A stretch of DNA of 63,774 nucleotides, the filler included, from Rhizaria sp. SCN 62-66 (lineage: Eukaryota), in assembly GCA_001724265.1 (NCBI GenBank). It is 2 parts of 2 records of this genome, joined end to end, with 100 filler letters (N's around TTAATTAATTAA, not from the genome) between each part and the next. Parts side by side here need not be neighbours in the genome. Positions count along the whole stretch, not along the records: positions 31,963 to 63,774 come from MEDY01000351.1; 1 more part is not named here. One strand, written 5' to 3'. Made by a program: the position numbers and the translations under genes. Every line of letters starts with the position of its first letter. The stretch's first letter is position 1. Positions 11,688-63,774 of the stretch are shown here, piece by piece. A model generated the notes under the pieces. It was not told the DNA's origin and made no database searches. It saw only the letters and a program-made list of their open reading frames with translations.

Positions 11688-11722
<35 letters not shown>

Positions 11723-12765: not shown

Positions 12766-12802
<37 letters not shown>

Positions 12803-13026: not shown

Positions 13027-13061
<35 letters not shown>

Positions 13062-27700: not shown

Positions 27701-27846
27701 TCGACGACGACCTGGGCGAGATCCCCACCACGAGCGCCGAGGCCGCGGCCGCCGCGGCGCCCGTGCTCGACGTCAAGGCGCTCAAGAAGCTCGAGAAGAA
27801 GAACAAAGGCAAGAAGGACAACGACGAGGAGGAGGACGACGCCTAA
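24790..27846 (+). CDS. ABC-F family ATPase (ABCF/GCN20-like), join(24790..25182,25351..27846), ~962 aa
   Basis: Two NBDs: Walker A GQNGIGKS and GANGAGKT, signatures LSGGWRMR and LSGGQKSR, LLLDEPTNHLD / IIMDEPTNHLD, SHDR H-loops. No TM helices, strong GC3 bias, TAA stop. Confidence 0.93.
25183..25350 (+). other. Spliceosomal intron (168 nt)
   Basis: CAG|GTCCGT ... TTTAG|GAG, AT-rich, phase 0, joins the two halves of NBD1. Confidence 0.85.
27040..27600 (+). repeat. Four imperfect ~45-50-codon coding repeats (EDDEAAMLAMMAGLA...KKDKKKGKKAA) in the ABCF C-terminal tail
   Basis: MLAMMAGLA occurs four times, each followed by acidic and then KKDKK lysine-rich blocks. Confidence 0.85.
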
Positions 27847-31862: not shown

Positions 31863-31962
31863 NNNNNNNNNNNNNNNNNNNNNNNNNNNNNNNNNNNNNN
31901 NNNNNNTTAATTAATTAANNNNNNNNNNNNNNNNNNNNNNNNNNNNNNNNNNNNNNNNNNNN
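31863..31962. other. Artificial contig spacer N44-TTAATTAATTAA-N44
   Basis: Exactly 100 nt with symmetric N runs around a palindromic 12-mer that gives stops in all six frames. Confidence 0.97.
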
Positions 31963-40900: not shown

Positions 40901-43480
40901 AGCCACAGCAGCGGCAGCACGCGCGGCCGCGGAGCCCTGCGGAGCCGCCGCGCAGAGCAAGAGCAGCACGGCCTCCAGCGGCAACACCGCGCCAGTGCTG
41001 ATCGCAGGGCCAGCGGCGGCGACCACAGTGGAGTTCGCGCCAGAGGCGGTTGCAGCGAACACGAGCGGCGGTGCGGCGGCAAGCGCACGCGCGCCTTCGC
41101 TGTTTTGTGACAGCGTGCGCATCGCGCGCAGCAGCAGAAACACGACGGCGCCCGCTGCGGCACCCAAGCACGGTCCGCTGCCAGCAGTGGGGCGAGCGCC
41201 GAGAAGTCCAATGACGCGCGAGCCCGTCGCAGTGGTCGTCGCGGGGCGGGCTGAGAGCGAGGCTAATGTCGGCAACATGTCGCCATCTACAGTCGTCGGC
41301 GCGGTTGCGGGAGCAGTTGCGGCTGAGTCGGGAGCGCCAGTCCAAAGCAGTGCGAGCGGCACGCGGGAGCGTTGGGCCCCAGCAGAGACTGTGGTGCCAG
41401 CGACGAGCGCCTTCGCGATCGAGACCAGCAGCGGCAGCGCGCCCGCGGTAAGCGCAGTGCTCGCGCGGCGAGAGCACAGTCGTTCAAGCAAACTCAGCTG
41501 CAGCGGCAGCAGCGCCGCGCGTGCACGGGCTGCTGCAGGGCTTTCCGCCGGCGTCGACGAGGCAGATGCGCTAGCTGTGGCCACAGCAACCACAGAAGGC
41601 CCCGCGCCAGCGCCTACGCCCAAGCCCGTCGCATTGGCGGTGCTTTGCTGTGCGAGCCCCAGCGCGGGCCCAAAGTGGCCCTTGACGGCAGCGACGACCG
41701 CGGGTGCAGCGCCCAGCATCGCCAAGAAAGACAGTGCGCTGGCCGCGTGCGGCGACGGCGCGCTGCGAAGCCCGAGCTCCGCCAGCGTTGCAGCCGATGC
41801 GCCAGCACCCGCCACAGCGCCAGTCTCACCCGGCGCACCTTTGCCCGCGCCGCTTGCAGCGCGTGCTTTGCCCTTGCTTGTAATAGTGGGCGCAGGCGAG
41901 GGCTTGTCATCGGCGCCCTTGCCGCCGCCAGTGCTAAGCGTCAATCCACGCGACGCAGCGTCGGCAGTCTTCTTGGTGACAGCTATGCTGTTGCTGTCGC
42001 CGCCGTTGTCGCCAGGGTTGGCGTCTGCGTCTGCGTCTGCATCGTAGTCGTCGTCATCGTCGCCGCCTGCGCCCGCACCTGCGCCCCCCGCGTCGCCGTC
42101 GCCGTCGTTGCCGTAGTCGACATCGGCATCGGCGTCAGCGTCGGCATCGGCGTCTTCATCGTCGCCGCGCCGCCCCGTCGCGCTCACGGCGGCCGCAATC
42201 GCGCCCTGCACGGGGTCGCTCTTGCTCTTCCCAGCGGCGTTCGCACCGGACGCTGAGGTTGACGCCGATGCGGACACGGGGACGGGGACGGGGACGAGTC
42301 CGCCAGTGGCGCGCACGAGCACGGTGAGCACGCAACGCAGCGCGCGCACGGCCAGATTGCCGCCGCCGCCCAGCACTGCGGGCGCGCCACCGGGCAGTGC
42401 GGGCGCGACGGCCGGGGGCGCGTGGAAGGCCCCGACCGCGGCGGCAGCCGACGCGGCCGCGGTCGCGTGCGCCGCGGGCGTGGCGACGGCCAGCGGCGTG
42501 CGCGCCGAGGCTGCAATAACCGCGACAAGCGTGGGGAAGGCGCGCAGGCGGAGCAGCGTGGCGACGCGAGGGTAGGACTTAAGCAGCGTGAGCAGAAGTG
42601 CGAGCGCAGCCACTGGCGCCGCCGCCGCGCACGACACAGCAAGCGCGTGCGACGCTACAGCGGGCCCCGAGGCTGCGACGGCGGCTGCGGCGGTGGAATG
42701 CGCGGCTGTAAGCGTAAGCAGCGCGTATGCATGCGCGGGCGCCGTCGCGAGCGCCGCGAATCCCGCGGGCGTGGCAGCGGCGTCGGCGACGCGCGTCACG
42801 GCCGACAACAGACTTGGGCAGTCAGCCAGGCACCAGCCGAGCATGCGGCCGGGCGGGGGCGAGCCGGCCGCGGCGGTTGCAGCGATGGCGCCTGTGGGCG
42901 CGTCCTCCGCAGCGGCGAGCGCGCAGAGGGCGCGGAGCGCTGCAAAGGCCGCCACCGGGTGCGGCAGCGGACCTGACGCGCCGCCGGCAATAACGACTGT
43001 GCTGTTGCTGCTGCAAGCGGAGCCGCTGCCGAGAGCGCCGCGCGCGCCGCCGGCTGTAGACGGCGCTGCAGCTGCGGACGCGGCGGCGTTGGCGGAGGCG
43101 GAAGAGGCCGAGGCCGGTACGAGCACGGAGAGCGCGCGGTCGAAGCCTGCAGTGAGCGACGCGAGGTATGGGGGCACCGTGCCGCCGCCACGTCGCGGAC
43201 GCACGGGGGGCGACGCGGAAGCGGCAGCAGCTGCGGCGGCGCGGGCTGCGGCACGCGAGGATGTCGCGGACACAGAGCCGGGCGCAGCCGATCCTGCGCG
43301 CGCGACGTTACCAACGACGGAGGCGGGGTCTGGCAAGGATGTGAGCGCTGAGAGACCCTCTGTCACGACAGCGCGTGTGATCGAGTCAAAGCATGCAGTG
43401 AGCACAGTGGGGTCATTTGAAGACAGAAGCAGGTCGGGGATGTCCCCCAGGGCGCGGGGCACACCCCGGGAAGCGGACAT
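31963..43480 (-). CDS. Giant cytosolic carboxypeptidase (M14D; CCP1/AGTPBP1/Nna1-like tubulin deglutamylase), >3800 aa, 3' truncated at the junction
   Basis: Ordered motifs FESRFESG, YDLLL...HTQWFLF, YTFNIVN...KKDSIFAKGMRP, YYSISFQITF...LAYCLPFT, RVHPAE, FKIVPMLNPDGV, RCGLSGVDLNRHW, LDLHAHS and FTLEVT. First in-frame ATG is at 43480. Confidence 0.88.
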
Positions 43481-44025
43481 GACGCCGCGCACGCGGGAGG
43501 GACGAGAGCTGGAGGGGAGTAACGAAGGTGCTGAAAGAGTGGTGTCCTTCGAGTTGGTTTCTATGCAAGTCCAAGAGAGATTATTTAAAAATCATGCAAA
43601 TTAAAGGATTAGACGCCAAAAATGCAACCATTCAGCACGTTATCAGTCTATTATACTGAGAGCAGAGAGCAAGGCATCATGTGATAGAGCGTCAAGCGAC
43701 CCGATGCCCCCTGCCAACTCGGCTCACAAAATCGGTGATATAGAATGTTGGTGTCGAGAAATAGCGATATAATTAAAGTGATATCAAGAAAATAGAGTAT
43801 ATATTGCTAAAGCTAGGTAAGTTATAAGAATATCGGACACCAATACGCACTAGATGCGTTTGCGGTTTTCAGATCGCTCGAGTCAATGTGTCGGCTCGAG
43901 TATCTTGGTCACATGCAACCGCTGTCACATCCTCTTCAAATCCAAATTGAAGTCAAAAATAAACTCAATTTGAGAAGATGATACAAAATCGTATGTAAAA
44001 CACTTAACTATACATATTAATGAAC

Positions 44026-47000
44026 TCAAAGTCCGCGGTGATGATTACTATCTTCTTCTTGCTCTGGAAAGCACCACTGGTGCTGCTCATGACACTTCTT
44101 GTCACCTGCGTGCCCAGAGCTTTCCGGCGCTGCCATTAGTGCAGCAGCCATCACAGCGTCGGAGGCAGCCAAGGTACTCAATGTCATTGCTGTCGCAACC
44201 ACTGCAGAGCCGACCTGCGCGCCACTCACGCTTCGTGCATGGTCGTCACAGCCGTTGCTGTTGTTCAAGTTGTCTTCTTCGCTGCACCTGTCGCATTCGT
44301 CGTCAGCGTCAGACGCGGTGCCAAAAGCACAGTGCGATGTAGCAAAAGTGCCAGTCTCACCTGCAATGTTATTGTCGGCGCAGAGCTGGACTAACACCAC
44401 TGACTCGTCATCTTCTTGGTGACCGTGACTGCGGCCGTGCCCATCACTTTCACCGTGGCTCTGGTTGTGGCGGTGATGACCGCGGTGGCTACCATGCTGA
44501 TGACTGTGATGCTTGCTGCTGCTCCTGCCACGCATGCCTAGCGCCAGCGCTGCAGCGCGCCGCGTCTTGCGGTGCGGGAACACGGCGGCCACGAGCGCAC
44601 TGACTGCGGTGACAGCCGGCGCCGCGACTGGTTGCGACTGTGAACAAGCAAGACGCACAACGGGACGCAATGCACCAAGACCGACGCCCAGCCCGCCCGC
44701 GCCGGCAAAAAGCGCAGGTAACGTGACGGTGGCCACCGTGCCCGGGAATAGTGCGCGCGCAGACAGCTCGACGCGATTCACAGTTACACCAGCCGAATCG
44801 CCATTTTGACTGTCACTGGTGCTGGTGCGATCATATCTGTTGATGCCGTCGCCGCGCGTGTCGACCCTGATCACGGTCACAGCTGCGTGGGGCGCAGCGA
44901 GGCGCGCGCGGCCGGCGGCCAACAGGGCGGCGACGACGGCGCTGCCCCTGCCCCCGCGGCGCAGCGAGCATGGCAACACGGCGAGATTCGGCGCTGCGCC
45001 CGCAGATGTCAGCACGCGCGCGTGCAGCAACGGCCGCAAGCCGGACGTTGTTGCTGTCAGCGCGGGAGCGCTCCACATGTCGTTTGTTCGCGCTTGTATA
45101 GCAGTCGCTAAAGCGTGACTCACAGTCGTTGTCGCCGTCGCTGGCGCAGAAGAGGAAGAGACAGGCAGCAGCAGCCGCAGCCATGCTGCTACGGCTGCGG
45201 GCGCAAGGCCTGCGCCGATTAGCATCGTAGTCACGGACGCACGCGTCAGTGTCTCCGTGGCACGAGCTGCATGCGCCTTAGCGGCAGCACCTGCTGCTGA
45301 ACGCGCAGCGCCGGCGCCAAGACTGGCTGCTGCGCCGCTGCCATGGAAGGGCTGGTACGTGTCCCCATCTTCATCGTCGCCGTGCTCTCCAGTCGCACTG
45401 TTGCGCGCGGGCCGCACCCAGGCCGCGGGGGCGCAGGTCGCCCCGCGCAGCAGGCTCAGTGCGCGCGAGCGGCGCTGCTGGCTGAGCCCGCGGTTGCGTT
45501 GCAGCTTCGCCAGGTCACCCCAACTCGGGACTGGCCGGAGCCCGCGCGCGCGGCCGCCAGCGGTTGCTAAAGAGCCACGAGCGTGGCCGTTGTCATCGCC
45601 TGTACTCGCACTGTCAGTGCCTTCACCGTCGCTTTCACTGTCACTGCAGCTGTCACTGTCTGAACCGCTGTCTGAACCTGTATGCGTGCCCGCATTATCA
45701 CAGGCATTGCTATTGCGGTCGCCGTCATTCGCAAAAACAGGGCGTGAGTGCCAGTAGAGCCCTGGCACAGCCTGCAACGCAGCGCGACATGACCTGTCAG
45801 CGCTTGCGTCGGCACCCGCGATGACATTTGTGGGGGCAACAAAAGCTGCGGTAATAAGCAGCGGCAGCAGTGCCCGCCACCCAGCGCCAGCAACGGCCGC
45901 TGGGAGTCGCGGCGCAGCATGTGCACTGTCACGGTCACGCCTACGGTCGTGGGTACGATCACTTGTAAGTGCACAATGCGCAGCTGCGGGCGCGAGATGC
46001 ACGAAGGCTTTAGCATGCTGCCAATGGAGACTATCGTGACACGCACGGAGCAACCACGAGTGCGGTGCACTGCTGCTCTCACCGGTGTTCGCCTTTGTCC
46101 CCGTCTTCGCGGAGCTGGCGTTCGCGGTAGCAATCGACACCGCCGCATTGCAATCAAGTTGCACAGCTTGCACCAACGCAGCAGCGGCGGCAGGTCCAGC
46201 GGATGCGGTAACGGGCGTGGAAGGAACAGGAGCGGGCACGAGGCGCAAATAGTGCGGCACGTTGTTATCAGTCAAAGCAATCATTGCTGCAGTTGTAGTA
46301 CTAGAGACGGAAGCAGAAGCGTGACCCCGAAGCGCAAGCAGGGAAATCGGAGGTGGTGCGGGCAGCTGCAACAGCGTAGCAGTGGGCGCGGCGGCGGGCG
46401 GTGGCAGCGTGCGCGCAAACGCGTGGCCAACCGCGAGCATTGACGACGCGGTCACCAACGCCGTGACGTCCACGGTTGCACTCGTCGCGGGTGCCGCCGC
46501 AGAAGCAGTAGCAGTTGTCGCGGCGCTATCGGACTCGCTTTTCGCGGCTCTCGCACGCGCCGACGATGACGAAACAGGCGTGCGCGGACACAAGAAGGGG
46601 AAAAGCGTGTGCTGCGCAAGGCGTGCTAAGTGCACCACGGGAACAGTGCAGAGTGGTGGGAACGGGTCCGAGAGCGAGAAGGCAGCTTCAGCGCTCGCTG
46701 CCGCTGCAGGCAACATCGCTGACGGATGTAGCACTACTGTCGGCGTCGGTGGTGACACAGGTGTTGCCATTGCAGCTGCAGAGTGACCATGAGGAGCTGC
46801 GGGTGGTGGGACCAAGTCATGCAGATTAGCTGCGATGAGAGGCGTATGCAATCCAAGCGCAGCCTCGAGATCGCGCTGCGTGTACACTGCGCCGCCCAAA
46901 ATAAGGGCAAGCCGGCGTGACAAACGCTGCGGGCCACTTGCACCGAAGTTCATGTCAGAAGCAAGAGCGGCATTGGTCTTTTGAGGACAGGCGTGGCACA

Positions 47001-50000
47001 GTTGCGCCAAACCGGTGGTGGCACGAGGCCCCGCTGCAGCGAGTAGTCGAGTCAACGTCGCCATAGCGCTCCTCGATGCATGCTTCGAGCCACCGCTTTC
47101 AGAGTGCCTTGCAGCGGCACTGTCCTCATGCTGAGGAAGATTGGGCGAAAGTGCAAGCCAAGTGAGTGCAACGCGCTCAGCAGTGCCATCAATAGGCCCA
47201 GCACAAACAAATTTGTCAGCACCACCAAGAGGGCACTGAGATTGCGTTGCCGCAGAGTTGGAGCGACCGCTTCGATGAACGGCGGCAGCAGCATCACGTA
47301 TCTCATCACTAATGGACACAGAGATAGCTTCCAGTGGTAGAGACGCCATGCGCAGCAGCGCCAGAGACAGTGTTGTGTCATCCGCCGAAGTCACGGTCTC
47401 CGACGCAGCACACAAAGCTTGCGATGTGAAGAAGTCCAACAACACAATGAGGTTACGTGCGTTAATAAGCAGACTTACACAGTCACCAACTGCATTGTCG
47501 GCTGCAGCCGTTGTCCGACTGCGCTTCCTGGCCCGACGTCGGTCATCACTGTGACTGTGTCCGTAACCGTGGTTGTGATCGACAGCCTCATGACCACCGT
47601 GCACGCGTGCTTTTGCGACTGCGCGGGCCAGCGCGGTGATGCTGCTGCAGCCTGCACTGAGTAGCGCGTCAGGATCACACCATCGCGGCGGCGTAAACAG
47701 CGGTGATGCAAGTGACGAGTTTGCAGTCCCGGAGCACGATGGAGAGTCGTCACACGCCACACGCGCAGTAGCAGCAGTTGAAGCAAGCGCAAAGGGCGGC
47801 GTAAGCGCGTGCCATGGGCGTTGCAGCGCACGTGCGAGTCGGTGCATGCGAGCAGCCGCAAGCGGCGCACAATGTGTCCCGAGCGCTGCAGCTGCCGAGG
47901 GCGCCAATGCGGCGTCATCAGAAGCAGGAGCTGCTGCTGCAAGGGCAGAGAGAGCAGTAATATCCGCATTTGCACCAAAGAGAGAGAGGAGAGCATAGAG
48001 TATGTCAGCCTTACTCTTCGTTGAATCGTCATCATCTTGGCCGTTAGTGTCGCCATATTCGCGTCGTTGCGGCAACAGCGTGTGTGTCCCACTCATTGCG
48101 TTGCAACAGTTTATGAGTGAGGGCAACATCAGCGACTTGACCGGGTCTCCTCTGTTTATTCCAACAGGCTCCAACCGGGAGTGCTCAACCCGATGCCGCT
48201 GTGTTCTCGTCACACCGTTATGCTTGGAACTTGTACTCGCGGCCGAGTCTTCAAGCGCTGTTGCAGCACTGTGACGAGCAGTGCTGCGCTGAAGTCTCGC
48301 TGCCTGATTTCCCGGAACAGGCGAGAGTGGTGCGAGCGCAGGAGGAAAGTTCAGTGCAACTGGCACAAATGCGCCGTCGAACGATGCTTCATCATCACGC
48401 CCACTACTCAACGCAGACGCAGCAAGTGATGGGTTCTCCAACTCCGGCGGAGCCGGCGGCAATTCGGGGCCGAGAGGCTGCGTGATTGAGTTATCGAGAG
48501 CTTCGTCGCCAAGAGGTGTTCTCAATTGCGCGTCGTTGTGTGTTCTGCCTGTGGCGTAGTCTGCGGCGCGTGCAGCAGCACGCGCAAGCGCTGAGGCAGA
48601 AACAGTGTGAGCCTCCTCAACCGCAGCGCGCACAAGCGCCCTGACGGCCAGGACAGCTGTCGTAAGAGCTGCCAGGCGCGCGCCCGCAGACACTGCCGCC
48701 GCAGCTGTTGTGGCCGCCTCTGCAACCGTTTGTCGCCCCTCACAGTCATTAAGCGCGGCTGACGCGATTGCAGGTAACAGCAAGCGGTGCGTGGCGCATG
48801 CACGCCACGATGGCAGACGACGTAGCCATAGTGAAGCTGCAGCTGACGAGGAATGATATAGCGCGCAAGCTGGCGTGGGACGCGGCGGGGCGGCGGCCAG
48901 CGCCAACGAGCGCAGCGGAGCCGCAGCCAACCGCGCTGCAAATCCTGCGAGCTCAGCGGCATCTGTTGCGTTGCTTCCAAGAGCAGCAGCCGCAGTCTCC
49001 GTGCCAGCAGGGGCTGACGCAGTCGGACTGACATGTGCGAGCGCAAGAGAGGGCAGCAGGCGTGGCGGCAGCAACACAGGCGCGTTGAGAACCGTGACCG
49101 TGGGCCAACAAAGGCGATAATACGTTGTCTGCTGAGGTTGAAAATAAACACACGATGCGCCGCCGCAGGCCGTATCAGAGCGTGTTGCACCTTCTCGACA
49201 CTCGCATATACACTCGCTCTCGCACTGGCAGTCATTGGAGCCAGCTGTATCGCTGCAGCTGCAACTGCAACTGCATTCGCTGCGATTAGCATCAACGCTC
49301 GATCCTGCGCATGGATGCACAAGAGCGAGGTAGCCGCGGTCGAGCAAAATCTGTCCTAACGCAACAACCCACGCCTCTGCGCCTGTCTTTTTACACAAGG
49401 TAGCAGGGGCAACATTTGCAGTGCTATGAGACTTAGTATCACTCACAGGCTTGGGACTCGTGGCACCGACGGATCCGGCGACTGTTGCGCGCGCAGCGTC
49501 TGCAGCAGCAGGCCCCCAGCCGCGGCCAACAGCGGCTGCAATGAAGGCCGCGATCTCAGCGCCAGTGGTGCAAGCGGGTATATTTGCACCACCGCGCTGC
49601 CGTGCGCGCAGAGACAAAGGCGCGAGCGCAGGCGACACGCGGTGCGCTAGGAACCACGCCAGCGAGCCTGCGGGCGCGACCGGCGCTGCAGCAGTAGGAG
49701 CAGTGAGACCGTCTGCATTTGCGCCAGCCCAGGCCGCTGTGGCGGCGTCAAGCGTAGGCTGTGACAACACCTGCGTTTGAGCGTGCTCGAGCGACTGCGC
49801 TGCAGTAGGTGCGGGCGGAGAAACGGGGCTGTGCCATGGCGGCGAAAGCGGTGAGCGATCAAGCAGTGGCGGCTGCGGTGTGGCAGCTGCACCAAGAGCA
49901 GGGGAGTAAAAGACAAAGTCGTCGCGATCCGGCGAGCTTAGTCCTGCCTCGTCATCAGCACTCAACTTAGCCGCAGCAGACTTTGCAGCAGTAGTGATGT

Positions 50001-53000
50001 TGCCAGTAATAGCAGTTAACCCAGCGCAAGCACCCAGAGTAACTGCCGATTGTTTATCCTTGCTTGTAGTTGTAGAACGAGCAGTCCCGTTCGTCGCAGT
50101 AGTTTGCACTACCGCGGCAGGTGTGCCGTTGTGCATTGCGGTGGCAAGCACAAACAGGTGGTAGTCGGTCAACATCCACGGTGTCGCAAGGGCAGGTCCG
50201 CTCGCAATCAGTCCAGTGTCAATTGCACGCGTCACGCCGTCCGCAACGACAGCATCCACAGCGGCTGCCTCTGCAGCGGCTGCGGCGGCCTCATTCTCGG
50301 CTGCAGCGCAAAGGTTAGCAGGGCTGCTGCTGCTGCGGCTCATCGCACGCGTCGTGCCACGCGCACCGCTGACCGCAGTGCTCGCACGTGCTGCGGCGTA
50401 CGCGCGCGCTCTCGCGTGCGCAATCGCCGTCAGCGTGTTCGAGGCGGCGAATGCAGCAACATCAGCAGACGCGGCGGCAGCCGGGCCCAGCAGGCAGAGC
50501 GCGCGCGGCAGCTGCGGCGCGGCAACTGCGAGCTCAAGATCGTCACCACCTTCAAGATTACAGGGCGCTAGTGCAGTTGCAGCAGATGTGGCTGTAGCAG
50601 CAGCGGGCAGCAGCGCTAACGGAGGATCGTAGTGGTTGTCACACACAAGTAGCCGGTCACTGCGCGCGCGCGCACTTTCGCGGCGCTCAACAGCAGCTCT
50701 CGCAGCAGAGCCCCAGCCAGGTCGAGTCATGGAGGGCGCGGGCGAGGACGCGGCGACTACATCGTAAGCCGAGTGCGAGTGCCCGTCAGCTGAGAGCGTG
50801 GGACTGGCCGACGTCGGACGCGGCCGCTGGTGTGGAGTCATTGACGGAAAATGAAGTCGCTCTCCGCTGCGCCCTGACGGTGGCGTTACCGTGCGCTGTT
50901 GTTGATGTTGTTGTAGAGATGGCGACAGCAGAGTGCGCCCTTGTACCAGCCCCTGCATACAAGACTGGGATGACTGTGATTGAAGGTGAAGCTGGGTGCC
51001 ACCAAGCGCGTGTGTGTTGACGTTCGTACATGTGAGCAGAGGCGTGTGCGCAGTCTGCGACAGCCACAACGACTCGTCTTCCACGGGACACCACATGCGG
51101 TTCCCGTCGCGCTCACTCTCACGGGCCTCCGCACCGCCGTCGCTCCTGCTCGGCTGCGGAGCAGAGTTGCCACTGGACGCGCCCGACCCTGGTGCCAGCG
51201 CGGGGCTGCGGCCGCGCGTGGCCGCGGTCACAGGCGCCGGCTCCAGCACCACGAGCTTGTACCCGCGCGGGGCGTGCTGCGGACTGTGCGCACGGCTGTG
51301 GCCATGGCTGTGTGCGCGACTGCGCGCGAGGCCGCGCACGGGACTCGCGCTGAGCGGTGCCTCGCCAGCCGTAGCAGCGGGCCCGACCACGCCGACGGGC
51401 GCGGACAGCACCGGGACTGGCGCCGGCACTGCGAGAGTCGTTGTCCCCGCCGTAACGGCGCTTGGCGAGAGCAGCGCGGGCGGCGGCGACGCGGCGCGCG
51501 GACTGATAACCGTGGGAGCAAGAGTGGGCGTGACAGTAACAGTAACTGTAAGCGAGCGACGCATGCCGCCAAAGCGTGCCTTCAAGGCATTAGCGGCCTC
51601 GCCATTCCCCGCGGTTGTCGCAGCAGCAACAGGCTCGTGTTGCGTGACCTGTTGTGACGGCTCAGTCGCGTCGTGCAGGGAGAAGCGCCGTCCAGCCCCC
51701 GCGCCCACACTCGCACTCGAAGTCGGGCCGTCATCGCCGTCAGTCGCACTCGCCGAAGCAGTTGGCACGGTCACGGGCGCGTCCGCGTTCGCCGAGAGAT
51801 GTACCGTAGCGCGACTGAGCGCAGCGCCGCGCGGCGTAGGCGGGACAACAGAGAGTGCGGCGTGCAGTGCAACTCTAGCAACGCCACCGTCACTCGTGCC
51901 TGCGGCCGCCGGCAGCCCGGGCGACGGCAGTGGCGACAGAGCGGCGGCCGGCGCACGCATCTCCGACAGCGCTGCTGCTGAGTGCAGCGGGGAGAAGTAT
52001 GTGTTGCTCAGTGTCACGCCAGAAAGAATGTTAACGTGCGCGCCTGGGGCAACCGCAATCACTGTGCGCTGCGGCGGCGGATGCAGCAAGTTCGACGCTA
52101 AAGCCAAAGAGGAGGACGACGAGAGCGCTGTGTTCGAAGCAGCAGCGCCAAGCGCAGGCGGCAGCGCTGGGGACATGCAGGGCGACGCGCGCGGTGACGG
52201 CCGCGGAGACCACTCCAGATAGGGCTGCGCCACTGCACCTGCGTGCGCGCCGCTGTGGAGCCCGGCACTGCTGCCGCTGCTGCTCGCACTGTGCTGGAAG
52301 TTGAGGTGCAGCTGTTGCGGCTGTGGCTGCACAGGTTGCGCTTGTTGTACCTGAGCTTGTGACAGTGGCTGCACGGCAGGGTGCGACTGCGGCCCGTGTG
52401 CATGGCCGTGCGAGTGCGCGTGCGCAGGAGGCTGGTGATGCATGAGAGGAGGGGAGTGCGGCGGCAGTGGCGGCAGCGCAAACACGCCTGCGCCTGCCGA
52501 TGCCGGGACAGTGGTTGCCGCGGAACCGGCTCTTGTGCCAGTCTGCTCCAACGATCTCCCGCCGGGTGCAGCGCTCACATTGCTGCCGCTGTTGTTCCCA
52601 GCAGTAATAGCGGAACTATGCGCGGGAAAGAGCGCAGCGACAGCAGAGTGGGCGGCCCCGAGCCCCGCGAGACTCATATCAAGCCCGAAGCTCGCGCCTG
52701 CAGCGCCAGCAACGACGGGAGACATCGCGGGCGACTGACGCATGCTTGCGCTCCCGCTGGAGCCCCCGCCGGCAGTCACGGCGGAGCGCGCGGCAGCCGC
52801 GGCGTGCGCGCGCGCAAGGAGGCGCGGAGACGGCAGCGTGATGAGCGACAGTGGCTGCAGAGAGGCAGTGGGCAGCGAGCCGCTTTGGAGAGCGATCGGC
52901 ACCAGCGACGGCGACGGCGACGCTGACGGAGAGCGCACATAACCTGCAGACATGGGCACACGTGCACGCGGGGCTAGCAGCGGAGACGCCGTCGCTGAGG

Positions 53001-56000
53001 CCGCGACTGAGGCAGAGCCTGAGCCGGAGCCCGAGTTTGAGGCCGGAGCAGCGACTGACAGCTGTGCTGGCACCGGGCCAGTCGCGGGGGCAAGGAACGG
53101 AGACAACGCCTCTGGCCCACGTTTCACTGGAACAATAGAAGTCATCTGGTCTGCAGCAAACACAGGGGCAGCGGCAGCAGTCGCTGAGGCCGAGGTGGCC
53201 GCAGTGGGCGTAAGCGGTGGCAGCCTGCGAACAGCGCCCGCGTGCGCCCGCGGTGACGGTAGCGGCGGGAAATGCGGGGTCGACGTCGGCGACGGCACCG
53301 CGGACGCTGTGGCGGACTGCAGGTGCGAGGCCGCGGCAGAGCCGGAGCCAGAGCCGGGAACCGAGCCGGGCGCTCCGCCTCCCGCGAGCGGGGGCGTCGC
53401 GTCGCGGCCAGCGCCACCCTGGCTGCCGGCAGCAGGTTGCGCTGCACTGCGGCCGTGGCTCAGCGTGCCGGAGCGGTGGCTGAGGGCGCGGCCGCGCGGG
53501 GGCCCCGTGTAGCCGTTGCTAAAGTCGTTGTTGTCTCCATCTTCAACCGCAGCGTTCAGCCTTTCTGCGGCGGCACCGTCAGCTGCAGTCGCAAGCGCAG
53601 TCGCGCCAGCCGCGTTGACAGGCGTCACGTTGTCTGGCCCGGAGCCAGCTTCGGAGCCGGTCTCGGTCACGGTGACTGCTGGGCGTCCTGAAGAAGAAAG
53701 CCTTCTGTCGCCGCTGCTTGCCACACTGTGGCGTGCGTAATGCTCCTTACTATCATCAGCAGTAACGGTGGGGAGCGGCAGCGCAAGGTTGGTGCTGTCG
53801 TCGAGACGCAGGTCCTCAGCGCCTCCGTCGTGAGCTACAGGCGGCGGCGCGCCACAGTGAAGAGGCGGGGGCGTGGCCACGTAGAACGCTTCCTTGACAG
53901 GCGCTGCCAAACCCAACGCAGAGTTACCAGCTTGCACGCTGGCCAAGTCGCCCTCAGCAAGAAGCGCATTTGCAAGAGCAATGGGTTGCTCGAGGTCTGC
54001 GGGGACATTGCCAGCCCCCCGCAAGCGGCGCGAGAAAGCCAAACCAGGCGGTGTCTGAAGCAGTGTCTCAGTAGGGTCATCCGACATCTCTGTGCCAGCA
54101 TGTCGCTGTTGCAGTTGCTTCTGCAGTGCATTGGTTGGCGACGGCGAAGTTGAGTCTGCGGGCGAGGCAAGCTTCGAAGACGGAATACGCTTCACACCCG
54201 TAGCGCCAACAGCAGCGCGGCGAACACGCTCATAACCATCAGCGCCAGCCTCGGTTGCAGTGGCGCCAGCAGAATCAGCGATTGACACCAAGGGCGCGGC
54301 AGCCGTCGCCAGGGCGGAGTCCGTCACAGAGACCGCTGATGCCGCGGTGCTGTAGCAGTTTGAGTGGGCCGACAGGTCGGATCTCGCGCGCATCAGCTGC
54401 GACGGCACCAAGCCCTGTGCCTGACCAGCGCTGCTGCCCTCGCTGTTTGCATGCGTTGGCGAGTGCAGTTGTGAGTGCCCACTGAGCGTCGAGTGTAACG
54501 GGAACAGCGAGTCCGAGGGCGAAAGTTCGTGATGAGACTCAACGTCGGCGTGAAAGTCAGGCTGGCACGCCCCAGACTGCGGCGAAGACTCGCCCCGCCC
54601 AGTCTGCACAGACGCAGGTGCTTGTGCCTGTGTCTGCGCAGCTGCGTCTGTCGGCGTCAAGTTCAGAAGCGGCTGTGCGTGGGTCGAGAGCGAAACACTG
54701 TTCCCACCCGCGCCACGGTTACTCTCGCGGTCGCGGTCACGCTCCCCGTTGCTACTGCGGAGCCCGCGCAGTGGCGGGGGAAGGCGGCTAACCTTCCTGC
54801 GCCCGGTCCTGCTCACGGCCACCACGTCCACCGCTGCAGCAGGCTCCGCAGCAACAGCGTCGTGCGGCGCGCTCGCAGCAGACACGGCTGCAGCGCGGTC
54901 AGCATCGCCCACAGTGGTAATGCTGTCACGGTTGTCCGCGTCTGTCGCTGACTTAGGACTGGCCTCGGCACTGCCGGTCGCCGCTTTACCCAAACCGCGC
55001 GCGCGCACGAACGGCGGCGCCGTGACCGACACCAGCGCCGGCACGGCCGCCCCAGTCTCCGCCGCAGCGGCAGCGCCCGTGCCGGCCACACCTGTGCTGG
55101 CACAGGCTCTCGACGCAATGTTCGGCACTGCGAGAAGCGTTGCCGTCATGAACGCCTGCTGTTGCTGCTGCTGCGCGAGCGTCTGCTGTGGCAGCGTGAC
55201 TGTGTGCGTGGCGAGCTGCGACAGCGTGCGCGGGCGCGTGTCGGCGGAAGCCAGCGCAGCACCCGCTGTCTGCAAGCCGGCCGCGGCGGACTCCGTCTCC
55301 GAGGGCGCGGGCGAGGCCGAGGGCGAGTGCTACGGCGACCGCGGCGACGCCGACGAGGCCGCGGAGCCGGAGCCCGTCGCGGAGAGCGTGGCGCCAGAAA
55401 GAGAGCTAGCCAGGTGCGCGCTGTAGCACGAGGACGCGTTCAGCGGGCCGCCGACAAGGCCGCCGCTGACGCCGTTGCTGAGGCGACAACTGGGGGAGCT
55501 GCCGCTGCCTTGCGCGCCGGCGCTGTTGGTGCTCACGCTGCTCTCGCGCGCCTCACTGTAGGCGCTCTCGCTTTCGCTCTCAAGATCGCTGTCGCTGTTG
55601 CCACTGCCGTCGCCGCTAGCGTCGGCCTCGTCCTCGTTGTCGTCGCCGTCGTGGGGACTGAGACCGCTCCGAGCGACAGTGGTCACAGTTGTCGTTGCGG
55701 CAGTCGCGGCAGCGCGCGTGCGCACTGGGCCGTTGCGACTGGGTCCATGCGCGTGAATGCTACCGATGGTAGCGTTAAGCGCAACTGTGATCGGATCTGA
55801 TTCAGCTGAGTCTGCATTGCCAGCGCTTGGAGTGGCGCGCAGGTTGCCGCTGCCCCAACGCACGCGGGTCCGTGCCGCCCCTGCCGCAATATGCTCATGT
55901 TGTTGCTGCTGCTGTTGTTGCGCGCATGCGTCGTCGTGGCGCTCTAAATACCCCGAGCTGTCTAAGTACCCCGGCGACGCGGGTAAGTACCCCGCGGCGG

Positions 56001-56865
56001 ACATCTCCGGCGTGTGCAGGAAGCCCGGCGGCAGGAGCCCGCTGTGGCCGTGGCCGTGGCTGTGGCTCTGGCTGTGGCTCTGGCCGTGGCTCTGGCCGTG
56101 CCCGTGGCCGGCGCGGCCGTCCTGGCTGTGGCTGAGGCTGTGGCTGTGGCCGCGGCTGTAGGACTGGCTCTGCAGTAGCCCACTGCAGGCGCTGCTAGGG
56201 GTCGTGATGCGGCTGAGCGCGTGCGCGTTGTCACTGCTGAGCTTGGCCTTGTCACTACCGCCGCTGCCGCTGATGCCACCGGCATCGCCATTGCCGATGT
56301 TTCCACTGTTGCTGTTGCTATCATTATCATTCTGGTTATCGTTGTTGTTCTTGCTGGTGCTGGTGCCGGCGATGTTCTCACTGTTGAGCATACTGCACAC
56401 ACTGCTGCTGCCGCGACTGGGCAGAGACAGCCCTGCAGGCCCCGACACACGGCTAGAGCCAGAGCCGGACGTGAGTGTCTGGATATGCGTCTGCGTGCGT
56501 GTCCGCGCTTGTGTTGGCGTTTGCGATTGCGCCTGCGCCTGCACTTGCGCCTGCACCTGCCCCTGCACCTGCAAGGCTGCGGGTGCAGGGGCGGACGCGG
56601 GCGCGAGCGGTGGCGATTGCTGTGAAAGCAGCGCTTCAGCTAGCAGCGACCTGCGCGGGCCCTGCTGCTCTTGTTGACGCTGCTGTTTCTGCTGTTGATG
56701 TTGCGACAGCGAGCTGCTGCTGGTGTTGTTACTGTTGTCGCGCGCGCTGTCACTGGGGGTGAGAGCGGGGGCGGGGGCCGAGCGCGGCGGCGGCTCGGCA
56801 GAGGCAGGGCTCAGCGCGCCACTGGACTCTCGTTGCCTACTCTGAGAGGTCCCAAACGGGTTCAT
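44026..56865 (-). CDS. Giant (~4279 aa) low-complexity protein with a DEP domain and a degenerate DUF547-like region; one in-frame TAG at 55330-55332
   Basis: ORFs 55330..56961 and 44026..55275 share a frame, with only a TAG between them. DEP-like: CTTGAEIAAFI...VALGQILLDRGYL...FQPQQTTYYRL (~49110-49610). DUF547-like: LLINARNLIVL...ILGGAVYTQRDLE (~46650-47480). TGA stop. Confidence 0.6.
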
Positions 56866-57562
56866 GCGCTGTGAGTGGGCGCGTAAGCTAAACGGGGCTT
56901 GGGGAGCGCGGAGTCGAGGGGGGAGCAAGGGGAGGGACCAAGCGAAGCTTGTTTGTGCCAAGTAGAGGTGAAAAGTGCGCTATGCAGAAAAAATAAAAGC
57001 AAAAAATAAAAGAAAAATATGGAACAGTCAGTAAAATGCACCATACATTGTCATTGGAAGATATTCCATGGCTCTGGGACAGGTTGTCATTTCAAGAGGA
57101 GAAAAGAACGTATATGTGGTAGACTGAGTTTGAGCTGTGATTATAGCCGCGCGAAGCGCTAACTACTCAAAGCCAGATAAGATCTGACCACAAATAACTA
57201 AACAGGCCCAAGATACAAGTTGGCTTCCACACCAATGACATTAGTATTGAGAAAGTGGCATAGATTCGTGTGGGTCGGCGGGTTGCACGGCGGACTCGCC
57301 CGAGGCAGTGGGACAAGCACAAAAAACGTTTGCTGTCACACGTGCCCTGTCCGTCGAGAACTCCACAGACAATCATTTGAAGCATAGTTTCCGATTCAAC
57401 GCTTAATTTTAATATTATGTCTCTCAATTGTCAGGCTGCGCTTCTTTTTGCTGACTTCCAACAACTGCTCTCCCCCAGTGCTTGGGGCCCAGCCCTTCCA
57501 TTCCGCAGACCCCAACCCTCTGGCTCTCCCGTCTTCTCCACTACAAACACAACTGGCCTACC

Positions 57563-58562
57563 ATGGCTAAGAAGGTGGCATTTTGGCCTGCCGAGCTCCG
57601 AAGCCTCGGTGAGAGCGCTGCTGAGGTCGAGCGTCTCGTCATTGAGCTCGACTACACCAAGTCTAAGGTCAGTCCATTAAGTATTCTCATGTGTGAACTA
57701 TAACGACTCTGTTTTTATGTAACCTTGATGTCTATTGACACTGTATTGTGTATTTACCTTGATATTTGCTGACTGCGTCACTTTTTTCGTGTTTGTACTC
57801 GCCTCTCGCCGCAGAGCATTGCGTGCGACGCTCGCCGACAACGCAACAAGGCCGCGCTCGCCGAGCTCCGCAAGAAGGCGCACACCGTACGTCTCCTCCC
57901 TGCGGCATGCTGTCGCACTTTGCACACTACTTTATCACTCTCCATTCACCCATGTTTTACTTATGCTGATTTGGTCTGCAACTTGTAAGAGCCGCCTCAG
58001 TCATATCACTTTTGTTCTCACGCGGTGCTATGGTTGTGTTTTCTTCCTTCGTCCCGTCTAACATTGTTTCATTCACATTTTGCACACAGGTCTCCGGCGA
58101 CCCTGGTGCCCAGGTTATGTACAGCTCTGGTTCCTTTTTCTTCAAGACCTCTCCCGAAGCCGCCGTCGAGGCACTCAAAGCAGGTTCGTTTTATTCTGGA
58201 AGTTCTCTTAGCTATCTTGCACCTATATAGACCTGCTTCTACACGCCTGTTTATGGAGTACCGTCATCAGACCACATATAAGACCTTCACATTTTAATGA
58301 TATCATTGCAACTCCTCATTGTCTTTCATGCGCATATCCTCGCTTTGTGTGCGCTCTCTCAGAAGAGATCGCTCTCTCGGCCGAGATCTCCGCCCTGCTA
58401 TCGAAGCAGAAGTCGCTCGTGGCGCAGATTGCCGAGCTGTCGGACCTCTCCGGCGGCGCGTTGGGTGTGCGCGCGCGCGACGACCCCGTGTCCGCGTCCG
58501 CGGCGGCCGCGCGCGGCGAGGGCATCGATGCCGCCTCGCTCAAACTGCTGCTTCGCAATTGA
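57563..58562 (+). CDS. PDRG1: PDRG1-like prefoldin-family protein, join(57563..57667,57815..57886,58090..58183,58363..58562), 156 aa
   Basis: Three GT-AG introns give an open 157-codon frame: AEVERLVIEL...DARRQRNKAALAELRK...VMYSSGSFFFKTSPEAAVEALKAEEIALSAEISAL. This helix-hairpin-helix pattern matches recalled PDRG1. TGA stop. Confidence 0.75.
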
Positions 58563-59119
58563 GGCAGCGTCGCACGGTCATGGCTGTATCTCGGTCTGAA
58601 TGGCCTTGTGATCTAAGGTATACGCCATAATGTTGGGTGGGACTCTGTACTTAGCTGAGGCTGACTTCAGAAAGCAATAGTGACGCTTCAAAGGCCAATT
58701 ACGTGTCGCAAATGCCTAACTTGGCAAAAGATATCTCGCGACTACTTAGATCAATACAGTAGAACTTCATGTATTTGATTAACTTACCCATGTTTTACAA
58801 CACCTCTGAACGATGAGCTCACAGGCTACCGTTTCATTGATATCATGACACGAATAATGAAAGTGACACTTGCTTGATGCTGCCTCGGTTCTTTGGGTCC
58901 TCCAACGGCCCTCGGACCGAGTTAACGCATTGATGAGCAACTCACTCCACATGCAACCTGTTAAAGTTGCACCTTGATGAATAGGCTAACGCGACTGCAT
59001 ATTATTCTGTTATATTATTACAATTTAATAATTTCTTATCTACCGCTCCCACACGCATCTTTGCTTCTCACTCTGCGCTAACTGAACGGTCACCGTCCCG
59101 CCAATCTAAACTAGGATCC

Positions 59120-62100
59120 ATGGAGGTACGCTTTTACAAGATTTTAATGAAAACGCCTTGAATACCTGTAATGACAACCAAAAAACAATCTTGCTGATTT
59201 GATTGTTTCATATAACTCTATGATTGTCTCTACATCGTAGGACTTCGACTCAGTTCTCATGGGCACTTCGGGCGCGGACCTAATGTCCGGTGCCTTGGTC
59301 CCTTCCGAGGGCTCCGCACCTGCCTCTGCTGAGATGGCCTTTCTGGAGCAGCTCGCTGAGGTGGCTGCGCAGGCTGTGTACGATGACGACCGCGGTGCTG
59401 AGTTTATCGAACACCACATCGCGATCTGGGATATGCGCCGCGGCACCGAGAGCGACACGCTCACTCGTGGTGACTTCCCGCCCCTGCCCGCGTCGCTGCC
59501 GCCGTCCCTTGCGCGCCAGCGCCAGGAGCTTGTCTTGTTCTGCGCAGAGAACGAGCTCCGCACGTGGGTACTGTTGCGGCACCTGCGTAAGGTCGAGGAG
59601 ATCGTGGCCACCGAGGCCTACGCTGCTATTCGCGCCGCACCCTTCCCCGCGCCCGCCGCGGCGGCCTTCTCGCCCGCGCGCGTCGCAGAGGCCTGCATTC
59701 AGCGTGATCCTGAGCTGCTGCGCTGCCAGGCCGTGCTGGACTGGCTAGAGTAGACAGTCGCCGACGCCGACGCCGCTGCCGCCGCCGCCACGTCAGCCGC
59801 ATTGCCGTCGCTGTCATACCGCCCCACGCTCACGCGCCTCAGCGCGCTTAAGGCCGTCGCAGGCGCGGACCTGCCGTACGCCGACGTGGACGCCGGCGCG
59901 GCGCTGCTGGACCCGCGCGACGCCGAGGCCGAGACGCAGGCGCTGCGGGCGTCGTGGCGCCACCTGCGCGCGGGCCGCGGCGACCGCGCCGTCGCAGACT
60001 GCGCCGCCGTCGGGCTCGGCTGGCGCGCCGCGCTGCTCGCCGGTTCCGGCGACGCCATGTTCGACGTCACGGCCACAGGAAGCGTGCGTGGGAATCTTTC
60101 CTACGCGCTTTTCAAGCAACACATGCGCGCTCTTGCGCTTGGTGTGCCGTACCCCGCGACCGGCGCTGGCAGCAGCACCAGCGCGAGTTCGAGTGCGGCG
60201 CCGGGCAGCGCGCTGGCACTGGAGCGGGCCATCTTCGGCGTCCTCTCCGGCGCGCCGGGCCCCGCGCTGGCGGCCAGTGCGGACTGGACGGACGCGACCT
60301 GGGCGCTGTTCAAGTGCCTGGTGACCTCGACGGTCGACGCCGAGGTCGCGCGCGTCGTTGCCTCGCACGCCGCCGCCGCGGCCACCGCTACGACCGCGGC
60401 CGCGATGGGTGACTGTGCGGCCCCGCGCCGTGGCAGCGCCGGCGTGCTGTGCAGCGACGCAGACGACGAGGACGCGGACCCAATTCTGTCGTGGTCCGTC
60501 GCGCGGCACGAGTACTCGCCCAGCTACGCCACCGCCGCGGGCGGCGCCGGCGCGCAGGCCAGAGTGTTTGCCGCCGCGGCCGCGTACGACCCCGATGTGT
60601 TCGCGTGCCCGCCGCCGACGGTGGACGCGCGCTGCGCTGACGCCGCGGCCGCGCTGGCCGAGGCGCGCCGCCGCTTCGCGCTGCCCGCCAACGACGCCGA
60701 CGCGCGCTTGCTCTTTGCGCCCGCCGCCGCGCCATCGGCCGCCGCCGCGCTCAGCGCCAGCAGCGCCAGCATCGCTGACGCGGGCGTGAGCGAGGGCGAC
60801 GACGCGGGCGCCGATGCTGCGGCCACCACTCAGTCTCCGTTGTCGTTCCTGGCCACTACGTACCGCGTGTTGCAAGAGCTCCTCATCCTAGGCCGCTACG
60901 CAGAGGCCGAGGCGCTGCTTGCGCGCAGGCTCACCGCCGTCGCTAAGGCCGCCGGCGTCGCCGCGCCTGCTCCCGCCGCCGCTGACGCCGCTGCCGCTGC
61001 CGACGCCGCTGCGGCCGCATCGGGCGCAATGACGCTGTCCGTCGGCGCGGGCGCTTTCTCTTTCGCCGCCAGCGGCAACACCAACAACAGCAGCGGCGGT
61101 GCCAACGCCGCGCTGTACGCGGCTGCGCTGCCGGGCCTCTCCGCGCTCGCCGCGCACCTGAGCCTGTACCTGTTCAAGGGCGTTCCGCAGCGCGCGACGG
61201 CGACCGCGGCGGGCACGCGCGCGCTGCGCACGCACGCTCTCGTGCTCGCGCGCGGCGGCTGCGACGCCGCCGTGCCGGTCTACTGCGACCTGCTGCCGCC
61301 CGCGGCCATGGTGGCGCACTACGCGGCCTACCTTTCGGCGTTGGGCACGACCGAGGAGCAGCGCGAGATGCTGCGCGAGGCCGGCCGCTTCCCGCGGCTG
61401 CGTGCGCAGGTGCTGCCCATCACCAAGCTGCTCGTGCAGACCGTGCTCACGGCCTCGGAGCTCGCAGACCTCGCCACGTCCCGCCTCGGTTACGACGGTG
61501 ACGACGACGAGGCCGGCGTCGACGCCATCGCTGAGGCTGCCGGCGCTGGCGCCCGCAGCGGGCTCTTCGGCGCCGCGACGCCCCAGTCCGCCGCCGCCCC
61601 GGGCCGCAAGTCCAAGAGCGGGTTTGCCAACGCCACCGGGGCGGGCACGCTGTTCGCCGCGACTCCGGCTCGCGCGGGCGCCGGCGCCACGCCCCGCGGG
61701 CCCTTCGGCTCCGCAGCGGCGCGCTCGGCTGCCGGCGCGGGTCACCGCAATACTGGCCATGGCAGCCAGTTCAACACCCCTGTCGTGCGTCTCAACTTCT
61801 CCTCCCCCGGCGCCAACAGTGCGACGCCCGCCGGCGCGACACCCGCTGTGGCTCCCGGTGCGCTGATGGCGTCACCGGGCGGCCGCGGCGCGTTCCTGGC
61901 GTCGTCCGCGGTCGTCGCGGCCGACACTGAAGTTTCTGCGGGCGACGCGCAGAAGATCGCCGTCGTCTCCTGCTTCGAGGCCGACACGGCGGGCCCTGCG
62001 CATATCCTCGAGGCGCTGCTGCATACCAACGCGCTGTCGCGCTACTTCGTCTTTGAGGGCAAGCTGGGCGCGGCGCGCGAGCTGGCGCGGCACTCGACCC

Positions 62101-63050
62101 CGCTCGCGGCGGCTGCGGAGGCGCGGTTGGGCGGTGAGATGGCGGCCGCGGTCGACCCCGCCACGGGCGACGCGCTCGTACGCGCGCTCATCGCCGAGCA
62201 CCCGCCGCAGACCGCCGCCAAGCCCGGCGTGGTGTCTGCCGCGGCCGTGGAGGCGATCGCGGCGGCCGAGGCGCGTGCCAACGCGGGCCGCGAGCTGCTG
62301 TCGTGGCGCTATTTCCTCACCTGTCTCGACTGGCTCGAGGCGTGGCGCGTGCACCACGCAGCCCGCCCCGCGCCGCTGCTCTGCGTGCCTGACGCGGCCC
62401 CCGAGGGCTTTGCGGTCGCCGGCGCGGTGCAGGGCTCCGAGGTTGAGGTCCTGCGGGTTGCGCCTGGGCCCAACGCCTCGCTCCGGAGGCAACAGGAGGC
62501 TGTCCGCCGCGCGCAGGAATACGCGTACGTTTGAACACAACTCGATAATATCTTTAGATTTCGCAATATTGTTGTCACATTCAATATTATATCATGTTAC
62601 CACCTTGTGTATTTTATTTTTAAAACTTCCTAATCTTTTTGCCATTTGTTCTCTTTTAGCGAGTGGGACGCGATAGACAAGGACAACGCTGAGAGCCTTC
62701 TCGACTCCTTCGTGCAGACCCTCACATTTCCGGGCGGCTGGCTGCTCGACTGCGCGCTGCCGGGTTCTCTCGTGGCGCAGACGCCCGAGCGTTTGGCCGA
62801 GACCCGAGCGCTGCGCCGCGCGTGCGTCCCGCAGCTGTGTCTGATGCTGCTGCGCGTGTGCCTCGAGAGCGGCCTCCACGCCCGTGCCCGCGCGGTCGTC
62901 GCTCTCATCGTCGACCCGCAGCACGCACTGTCGCGCGCGTTTGCCCCGCTCGAGCTTTCGCACGCGCTGCGCATGGCAGCCGAGATCCAGCTCAGCGCCG
63001 AGATCGCAGGCGGCGAGGCCGCCGTGGCGCCTGAGCTGGTGGCCGAGTGA
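59120..63050 (+). CDS. NUP107: Nucleoporin Nup107/Nup84, join(59120..59125,59241..62524,62660..63050), ~1226 aa, with one in-frame TAG at 59751-59753
   Basis: Nup107 motifs ENELRTWVLL, QAVLDWLE, LDPRD...WRHLRAG, GLGWRAALLAG, LERAIFGVLSG, DWTDATWALF, GGWLLD...LRRACVPQLCLML. Introns 59126..59240 and 62525..62659 (GTACG...TAG). TGA stop. Confidence 0.88.
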
Positions 63051-63642
63051 GCTTTCGCACAATGTGCGCGCTTAAAGCGTGACGGATAGAATCAAGTCAC
63101 TCATATGCCTATTATAGAGAGGGCCATATGTACATAATAAATCTTATATTTTATTTTCGCTTTGATATGTCCCTTTCTTTAAGTACTTTCATTCATTTTT
63201 CCCTGTCAAGACTCACACAGCTGCTCACAGTCACCTGCTTTGCTCACGGTCATTTCCCGATGAGCGACTGACGCCAGCCGCTCACGGTCGTCTCGCATCG
63301 TGGGACTGTCCGCACTTTCGAAGAGGTATTGTGGCCCTGTTTTAGCTTTCTTTGACGTGTTGATTTATGTCCCTATAGGTGTACATGATATTTGTCTTGT
63401 TTTGATTTCCGCGCAGGTAACAACCGAAGACTAGCCCTCCTTCAGAAGCACGAAAGCTCTGGAATGGTGCGACTCTGAACTGAGTACGAGAGTCGTTCTT
63501 TCCGTCTCTGCTCTGATCTCCCACACATGCGGTGATCTTGCCACGCGTTGTATTCCTTTATTTCACCCTATATTTATTTCTTTTCACACCTTTTCTGTCC
63601 TCGTTCCCCTTTTCTGCCGTCCCCACTGTAGCCTCGCACAAC

Positions 63643-63774
63643 ATGGGTCGTATGTACTCCTCTGGTAAGGGTATTTCCCGCTCCTCCCTCCCCTACAAGC
63701 GCACTGCGCCCACCTGGAACAAGGTGACCGCCAACGCCGCCAAGGACGAGATCTTCAAGCTCGCTCGCAAGGGT
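63643..63774 (+). CDS. RPS13: 40S ribosomal protein S13 (uS15), 5' part
   Basis: MGRMYSSGKGISRSSLPYKRTAPTWNKVTANAAKDEIFKLARKG, preceded by a pyrimidine tract and TGTAG (likely a 5'UTR intron acceptor at 63630-63631). Confidence 0.95.
   Translation, partial: MGRMYSSGKGISRSSLPYKRTAPTWNKVTANAAKDEIFKLARKG

Follow-up and report, generated by a model that had tools for sequence, protein, structure and literature searches.

UAG probably serves as a rare sense codon, with UAA and UGA as the stops, in the nuclear genome of Rhizaria sp. SCN 62-66 (assembly GCA_001724265.1), so that the nucleoporin Nup107 of this organism would be made at full length. The analysis covers a stretch of 63,774 nucleotides joined from parts of two records of that assembly (the window), in which a first-pass annotation had singled out a TAG inside the conserved domain of a Nup107 gene. 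Reading this TAG as an amino acid, as proposed there, is the best explanation of what we observe: the codon lies in frame in conserved coding sequence, constraint on coding persists downstream of it, and four such TAGs occur in three genes. That TAG is translated is well supported, if not proven, by the evidence within the window.

The window has the composition of eukaryotic nuclear DNA, its exons having 65–76% GC and a GC content at third codon positions (GC3) of 0.8–0.9, and its introns and spacers 24–45% GC. The Nup107 gene is laid out as follows, where P0127 is the nearest related protein recovered and P0128 a truncated public gene call of the same gene; the first exon and both introns are predictions from the sequence.

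59120-59125, plus strand: putative first coding exon, ATG GAG, with GTACGC coming next

59126-59240, plus strand: putative intron 1, GTACGC...CGTAG, AT-rich, 115 nucleotides

59241-62524, plus strand: exon 2, GC3 0.85–0.88, supported by identity to P0127, a Pfam match and matches to solved NUP107

59259, plus strand: alternative start ATG, taken by prokaryote-style gene callers for P0128

59751-59753, plus strand: the in-frame TAG, codon 171 of exon 2

62525-62659, plus strand: putative intron 2, GTACGT...TTTTAG, phase 2, 135 nucleotides

62660-63050, plus strand: exon 3, closing with a true stop, TGA, at 63048-63050

At 59751-59753 the plus strand reads CTG GAC TGG CTA GAG TAG ACA GTC GCC, with the TAG in the frame that starts at 59241 and a translation in that frame of ...QAVLDWLE*TVADA (the asterisk marking TAG). 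Two stop-to-stop open reading frames (ORFs), 59241-59753 (170 codons) and 59754-62534 (926 codons), are in fact one frame split by this single codon. As first proposed, a stop here would leave about 170 amino acids and cut off more than 900 in-frame codons; the number beyond the TAG rises to about 1,052 with exon 3, because the TGA at 62532 that ends the 926-codon ORF is located within the AT-rich intron 62525-62659 and the frame, reopening at 62660, runs on to the TGA at 63048-63050. Past that TGA, GC goes down to 0.42 and then 0.34, and the in-frame GC3 of 0.87 gives way to 0.37. The gene thus appears to bear introns and to comprise three exons. The public gene call for P0127 has an AT-type tail (YVLLIVFLVCSV...) directly after EYA, at the same place as intron 2, so that the position of this intron appears conserved; the call probably reads into an intron homologous to 62525-62659, which would make the C terminus of the database protein false. 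In a poly(A) metatranscriptome run (X4), a contig corresponding to 62105-62722 passes unspliced through putative intron 2, and the same run also covers intergenic positions 57569-58135; this contig might stem from carried-over DNA, from a transcript that kept the intron or from one that is unannotated.

The product of this gene, with X at the TAG, matches Pfam family PF04121 (Nup84_Nup100) with an E value of 1.1e-40 (140 bits, cut-off 22.5). The better of the two stretches reported spans amino acids 103-375 and profile positions 5-271 of 717, which places the TAG, amino acid 171, within the conserved Nup107 domain as originally annotated. The same region matches solved NUP107 from human (5a9q_4, E value 3.3e-11) and Xenopus (6lk8_I, E value 3.2e-10), and in both the DWLE motif is aligned and a serine occupies the TAG column. 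Over its length the product is colinear with P0127 across 1,095 amino acids at 56% identity, the stretch beyond the TAG included. P0127 is itself encoded in a single ORF of 1,029 amino acids with glutamate at the TAG position, and the alignment at the site is gap-free (P0127, ...RCQAVVDWLE-E-TAAHA; window, ...RCQAVLDWLE-*-TVADA).

We confirmed that the TAG at 59751-59753 is genuine and not an assembly slip. L001, a metagenome contig that belongs to a different collection, is identical (100%) at all 3,359 bases of positions 57473-60831 of the window, the TAG among them. The best matches to the Nup107 product in a library of 1.84 billion proteins were P0127 and two shorter proteins: P0128, of 164 amino acids (MGTSG...DWLE), which terminates exactly at the TAG and was called on six contigs from four sources, and P0126, which begins at a TTG just 3' of the TAG and runs to the end of an L001-like contig. 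These two are the halves of this Nup107 as split by standard-code gene callers. As further close Nup107 proteins, library searches gave only P0127 (56% identity, on a different contig) and P0128, and a metagenome scan for the Nup107 locus returned only L001, from the same organism. Three runs from two studies contain 0.99 of the sampled words of 59100-63100 and were flagged as possible sources of the assembly. We also aligned contigs, rather than raw reads, of run X4 and three others (X5–X7) on positions 44000-63774. These contigs list no differing letter at a TAG, a weak result, as it is not evident that they cover those exact positions; an X5 contig with T>C at 59705, 62 letters from the contig end, probably spans the Nup107 TAG. 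No intron joint appeared among the 15 contig joints listed (14 further exist), and many of the joints and loose ends stem from low-complexity repeats.

Splicing offers no way around the codon. The only GT..AG near the TAG is, as the first-pass annotation had it, 8 nucleotides long (GTAGACAG, 59750-59757), and since DWLE on one side and T.A.A on the other align gap-free to P0127, no intron can excise the TAG. An intron here was rejected on composition too, the surroundings being 70–83% GC as against the AT-rich introns of the gene.

Treating TAA and TGA alone as stops, we found three further TAGs within long GC3-rich frames of the window, deep in giant exons of two other genes. The sites and their genes are as follows.

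13315-13317, plus strand: in-frame TAG, ...ANKY*TQLPPR..., in a giant CCCH/poly-Q gene, 226 codons into the exon from 12637

13336-13338, plus strand: in-frame TAG, ...PPR*VPSP..., in the same CCCH/poly-Q gene, 7 codons on and 233 codons into the exon

55330-55332, minus strand: in-frame TAG, ...SPRSP*HSPSASP..., in gene H, a low-complexity gene of 4,333 codons, 549 codons into its main exon

9876-21282, plus strand: the giant CCCH/poly-Q gene, joined from ORFs 'D' and 'E', ending with TAA at 21280; its 5' limit is approximate

44026-56979, minus strand: main exon of gene H, ending with TGA at 44026-44028

The giant gene is formed by ORFs 9633-12470 and 12583-21282; an AT-rich intron (12408-12636, GTACGG...TTACTGAC...CCCAG) separates them, and the frame is kept across it. 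The resulting gene of about 3,700 codons encodes CCCH zinc fingers together with long repeats of the poly-Q, poly-N and HG types. GC3 stands at 0.90 before the TAG at 13315 and at 0.88 after it; for the TAG in gene H the corresponding values are 0.87 and 0.88. An intron that would remove the TAGs at 13315 and 13336 was sought and rejected, the sole GT..AG (13311-13338) being 28 nucleotides long and shifting the frame. No Pfam family was found for the 4,333-codon ORF of gene H (44026-57027, minus strand). Other TAGs, at 59238, 25348, 56982, 3023 and 3107, were rejected as coding, each being either the acceptor of an intron or part of an AT-rich 5' region; the TAG at 59238-59240, for example, is the acceptor of Nup107 intron 1.

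Across 13 coding segments (17,387 codons, including 18 in segment E that were later assigned to an intron), TAG occurs in frame four times and TAA and TGA not once; in the Nup107 frame alone the counts are one, zero and zero in 1,223 codons. Off-frame, the same coding segments contain 118 TAA, 129 TAG and 552 TGA in 34,748 codons, a density so much higher that the Nup107 reading frame cannot be a chance feature of a non-coding frame. After the TAGs the frames stay open for 2,881, 3,767 and 1,052 codons, and no frame is broken. Composition separates the codons in the same way: downstream of all four TAGs, GC stays at 0.62–0.83 and in-frame GC3 at 0.88–0.93; at all nine TAA or TGA frame ends, GC drops to 0.24–0.42 within 90 nucleotides and GC3 to 0.17–0.50. 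One of these nine, the TAA at 12468, sits inside intron 12408-12636, which leaves eight gene ends, a small sample in which four are TAA, four TGA and none TAG. In-frame UAG is found in several genes, with four TAGs in three genes; one of the four can be aligned to homologues (a residue in 72 of 72). On this reading UAG would be decoded as an amino acid, with UAA and UGA terminating; a cognate tRNA with anticodon CUA would read it and a release factor would ignore it, as in known UAG-only codes, and the TAG at 59751 would be an ordinary though very rare sense codon that lets Nup107 be made full length.

A number of observations count against UAG being a sense codon. It is very rare, with four occurrences in 17,387 codons (0.5% of glutamine codons, were that its meaning), and it compares poorly with usage in established codes: the cercozoan exLh, discussed below, has 384 UAGs in 71 genes, and use of UAG here is more than tenfold below that in Iotanema spirale, a member of an unrelated lineage (PMC5304391). 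At three of the four sites the sequence is of low complexity and no homologue can be aligned. Zero TAGs at eight gene ends has a P of 0.04 if TAG had a share of 0.33 and of 0.17 at a share of 0.2. Under this codon usage 63–66% of random nonsense changes give TAG, so that four TAGs out of four has a P of 0.16–0.19 and is weak when taken alone. Glutamine adjoins none of the four TAGs, compared with 39% of glutamine codons that have a glutamine neighbour, which counts mildly against glutamine as the meaning (0.61^4 = 0.14). The window contains no tRNA gene, no Rfam match and no eRF1 gene, and run X4, given its unspliced contig over intron 2 and its intergenic cover, shows no mature mRNA.

Leaky or programmed readthrough, for which we see a small chance, fares best among the alternatives. 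UAG would then end many genes elsewhere, and at these sites a suppressor or near-cognate tRNA would read it often enough for full-length protein to be made, so that the codon would have a dual meaning. The very low in-frame use of UAG (4 of 17,387 codons) would suit this, context-dependent stop/sense codes provide a precedent (PMC5304391), and with eight gene ends examined TAG terminators may exist elsewhere. Yet TAG is found at none of those eight ends, the four TAGs share no common context in the codon that follows (ACA, ACG, GTG and CAC), and local RNA structure is not outstanding at any of them (z-scores of +1.38, −0.30, +0.19 and +0.03). Inefficient supply of an essential scaffold protein such as Nup107 also seems unlikely.

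Somewhat less probable still is a true nonsense allele, with an intact Nup107 elsewhere: the copy here could be a pseudogene or, in a genome that is polyploid or heterozygous, a null allele, or the TAG could be a base error. Random nonsense changes would yield TAG more often than TAA or TGA here (63–66%), P0127 might conceivably be a paralogue and not the orthologue of a relative, and the search for another Nup107 copy covered collections of proteins and contigs. Set against this are the identical sequence in the independent contig L001 and the truncated call on six contigs, as well as the 56% identity to P0127 over the whole length, beyond the TAG too. The four TAGs, moreover, are spread over three genes that show no frameshift, and about 17,400 codons hold not a single TAA or TGA; because nonsense makes up 2.3% of random single-base changes, four such changes arising by decay would bring with them well over 100 substitutions plus indels. 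Strain differences in the X4–X7 contigs point the same way. Downstream of the Nup107 TAG, five are synonymous and one non-synonymous (P of 0.008–0.013 if unconstrained), although four of these six come from one low-depth contig and may not be independent; upstream, one is synonymous and two are non-synonymous. In gene H the 16 differences divide into 5 synonymous and 11 non-synonymous, which indicates that this gene is itself under little constraint, and two strain indels, one on either side of its TAG, are 6 nucleotides each and in frame.

Restorative RNA editing of the mRNA, for example A-to-I giving UGG (tryptophan) or U-to-C giving CAG, is very improbable: it would also account for TAG being the only stop in frame, and in Fusarium and Neurospora sites with U at −1 are favoured, UAG is often converted and genes with a premature UAG depend on editing for full-length protein (PMC11156358, PMC5496914, PMC10776026), but that system is known from sexual stages of ascomycete fungi only and the organism here groups with cercozoans, the hairpin signal is present at none of the four sites and none of their folds exceeds shuffled sequence in stability, tryptophan occupies the TAG column in none of 72 homologues (profile emission 0.003), and no A>G or T>C at 59751-59753 is listed in the four runs, with cover of the exact place not shown.

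If UAG is a sense codon, the only direct indication of its meaning comes from the homologues of Nup107. The TAG column is aligned to a residue, without a gap, in all 72 homologues that cover the place, a distribution that the first-pass annotation had proposed to read and that proved variable and polar. The residues are E in 12, K in 9, S in 9, Q in 8, R in 6, A in 5, N in 4, H in 4, D in 3, two each of T, F, G, L and V, and one each of M and Y. The expectation that homologues carry a polar or small residue after DWLE holds, with E, K, S, Q, R, A, N, H, D, T or G in 64 of 72 and F, L, V, M or Y in the other 8. The nearest homologues have E in six of seven cases. A profile built from the homologues gives emissions at this column of 0.142 for E, 0.111 for K, 0.102 for S, 0.092 for Q, 0.032 for L, 0.017 for Y and 0.003 for W, that is, ratios of about 3:1 for Gln:Leu and about 1.5:1 for Glu:Gln. 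The earlier suggestion that the column favours glutamine over leucine stands in so far as that 3:1 ratio goes; as a case for glutamine it falters, because the column barely discriminates and glutamate fits at least as well. For the three TAGs in low-complexity sequence, a search for internal repeat motifs from which the amino acid might be read found none. Glutamine rather than leucine is thus weakly suggested by the sequence. We regard glutamine as the leading candidate, though it falls short of an even chance; glutamate is a good deal less probable, leucine is improbable, and serine, lysine or others share what remains.

The organism is probably a cercozoan, a placement that comes from the ABCF gene of the window (25351-27846, plus strand). 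Its protein has four metagenome relatives at 67–73% identity, and its best named matches, at 41–46% identity, include the rhizarians Bigelowiella (a cluster), two Paulinella, Nonionella and Lapot along with choanoflagellates, brown algae and a dinoflagellate. In a quick maximum-likelihood tree of 21 rows the window sequence and its four relatives form a group with support 99, which then joins Bigelowiella and Paulinella, again with support 99. Because this is a single gene, sparsely sampled and possibly affected by paralogy, and the tree search was a quick one, the assignment goes no further than probable. Scans of genome contigs and viral contigs with Nup107 and ABCF queries gave either nothing or bacterial and viral ABCFs, the best of them 47% identical, and the protein Atlas offered no clue to taxonomy. 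The runs that contain the locus are metagenomes from bioreactors, wastewater, activated sludge and fuel cells, and the best explanation is that the organism is an uncultured, very GC-rich protist of engineered wastewater habitats. The ABCF gene has a first exon at about 24790-25182 followed by an intron ending at 25350, and its C-terminal tail carries four copies of ...MLAMMAGLA... between K/E/A-rich spacers.

Elsewhere in the window, a 3,876-codon ORF (31963-43591, minus strand) encodes a cytosolic-carboxypeptidase N-domain (PF18027, E value 2.4e-07) and a Peptidase_M14 domain (PF00246, E value 3.1e-13) set within thousands of Ala/Ser-rich low-complexity residues. Two runs of N, 44 each (31863-31906 and 31919-31962), fall within a minus-strand gene and are flanked by its ORFs at 29667-31910 and 31907-43591; as their frames differ across 31863-31962, the junction of the two is unreadable. 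At the other end, a gene start at 63643-63774 (plus strand), MGRMYSSGKGISRSSLPYKR..., runs off the window; we take it to be ribosomal protein S13/uS15-like.

Among known codes, that of exLh (Sainouroidea, Cercozoa) is the closest in form. Its nuclear UAG is leucine and UAA and UGA are stops, and UAG is the commonest leucine codon in its proteasome genes and stands at hyperconserved leucine columns (PMC5304391). The likeness is that UAG alone is in frame and that genuine gene ends use no stop but UAA and UGA (56 and 15 in exLh, four and four here), and that exLh is a cercozoan and the organism here probably is too. The difference is that hyperconserved leucine columns carry UAG there, whereas the sole alignable column here has leucine in 2 of 72 homologues. 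Abundant UAG at conserved leucine columns, as in an exLh-type code, is not what we find, though a single site is too little to exclude leucine. Literature searches turned up no account of this organism and no cercozoan UAG code other than that of exLh.

In Iotanema spirale (Fornicata) UAG is glutamine and UAA the stop, with UAG making up about 8% of glutamine codons (PMC5304391). It resembles the present case in that UAG alone is reassigned and is a minority codon, and the polar column here would suit glutamine. Further UAG-only reassignments are reported from phyllopharyngean ciliates and Protocruzia (glutamine and leucine) and from Scotinosphaera (serine), and in one ciliate UAA is lysine and UAG glutamate (PMC11687900, PMC10553269). 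In these, too, UAG is decoupled from UAA, and meanings such as glutamate and serine fit the Nup107 column as glutamine does; unlike the ciliates and the green alga, however, the window has GC-rich exons, spliceosomal introns of 115–229 nucleotides and cercozoan-like ABCF affinities. Codes in which both UAA and UAG (UAR) mean glutamine, as in Amoeboaphelidium protococcarum, ulvophytes, hexamitins and oxymonads (PMC11687900), resemble what is proposed here in that a nuclear genome translates a stop codon into a polar residue, but TAA is also sense there, whereas here TAA ends four of eight genes and is never in frame; a UAR = glutamine code is excluded here by those four gene ends.

Only a handful of lineages are reported to have nuclear codes that give UAG and UAA different meanings (PMC5304391, PMC11687900). 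If UAG is a sense codon genome-wide, the organism would add a non-ciliate case to the few UAG-only nuclear codes known and an independent data point on stop-codon capture, from an apparently widespread wastewater protist. Because callers using standard or bacterial codes split its genes at TAG, as with P0128 and P0126, its proteome is mis-annotated in public metagenome resources. The extremely low use of UAG in a GC-rich genome could mark an early phase of reassignment. More tentatively, and with appreciable odds against it, this may be a second, independent UAG reassignment in Rhizaria, with a polar meaning unlike the leucine of exLh and at a very early stage. UAG would in that case be gone from gene ends and, under extreme GC pressure, only beginning to return with an amino-acid meaning (0.02% of codons), and the genome would offer a natural snapshot of a 'codon capture' stage that is usually merely inferred.

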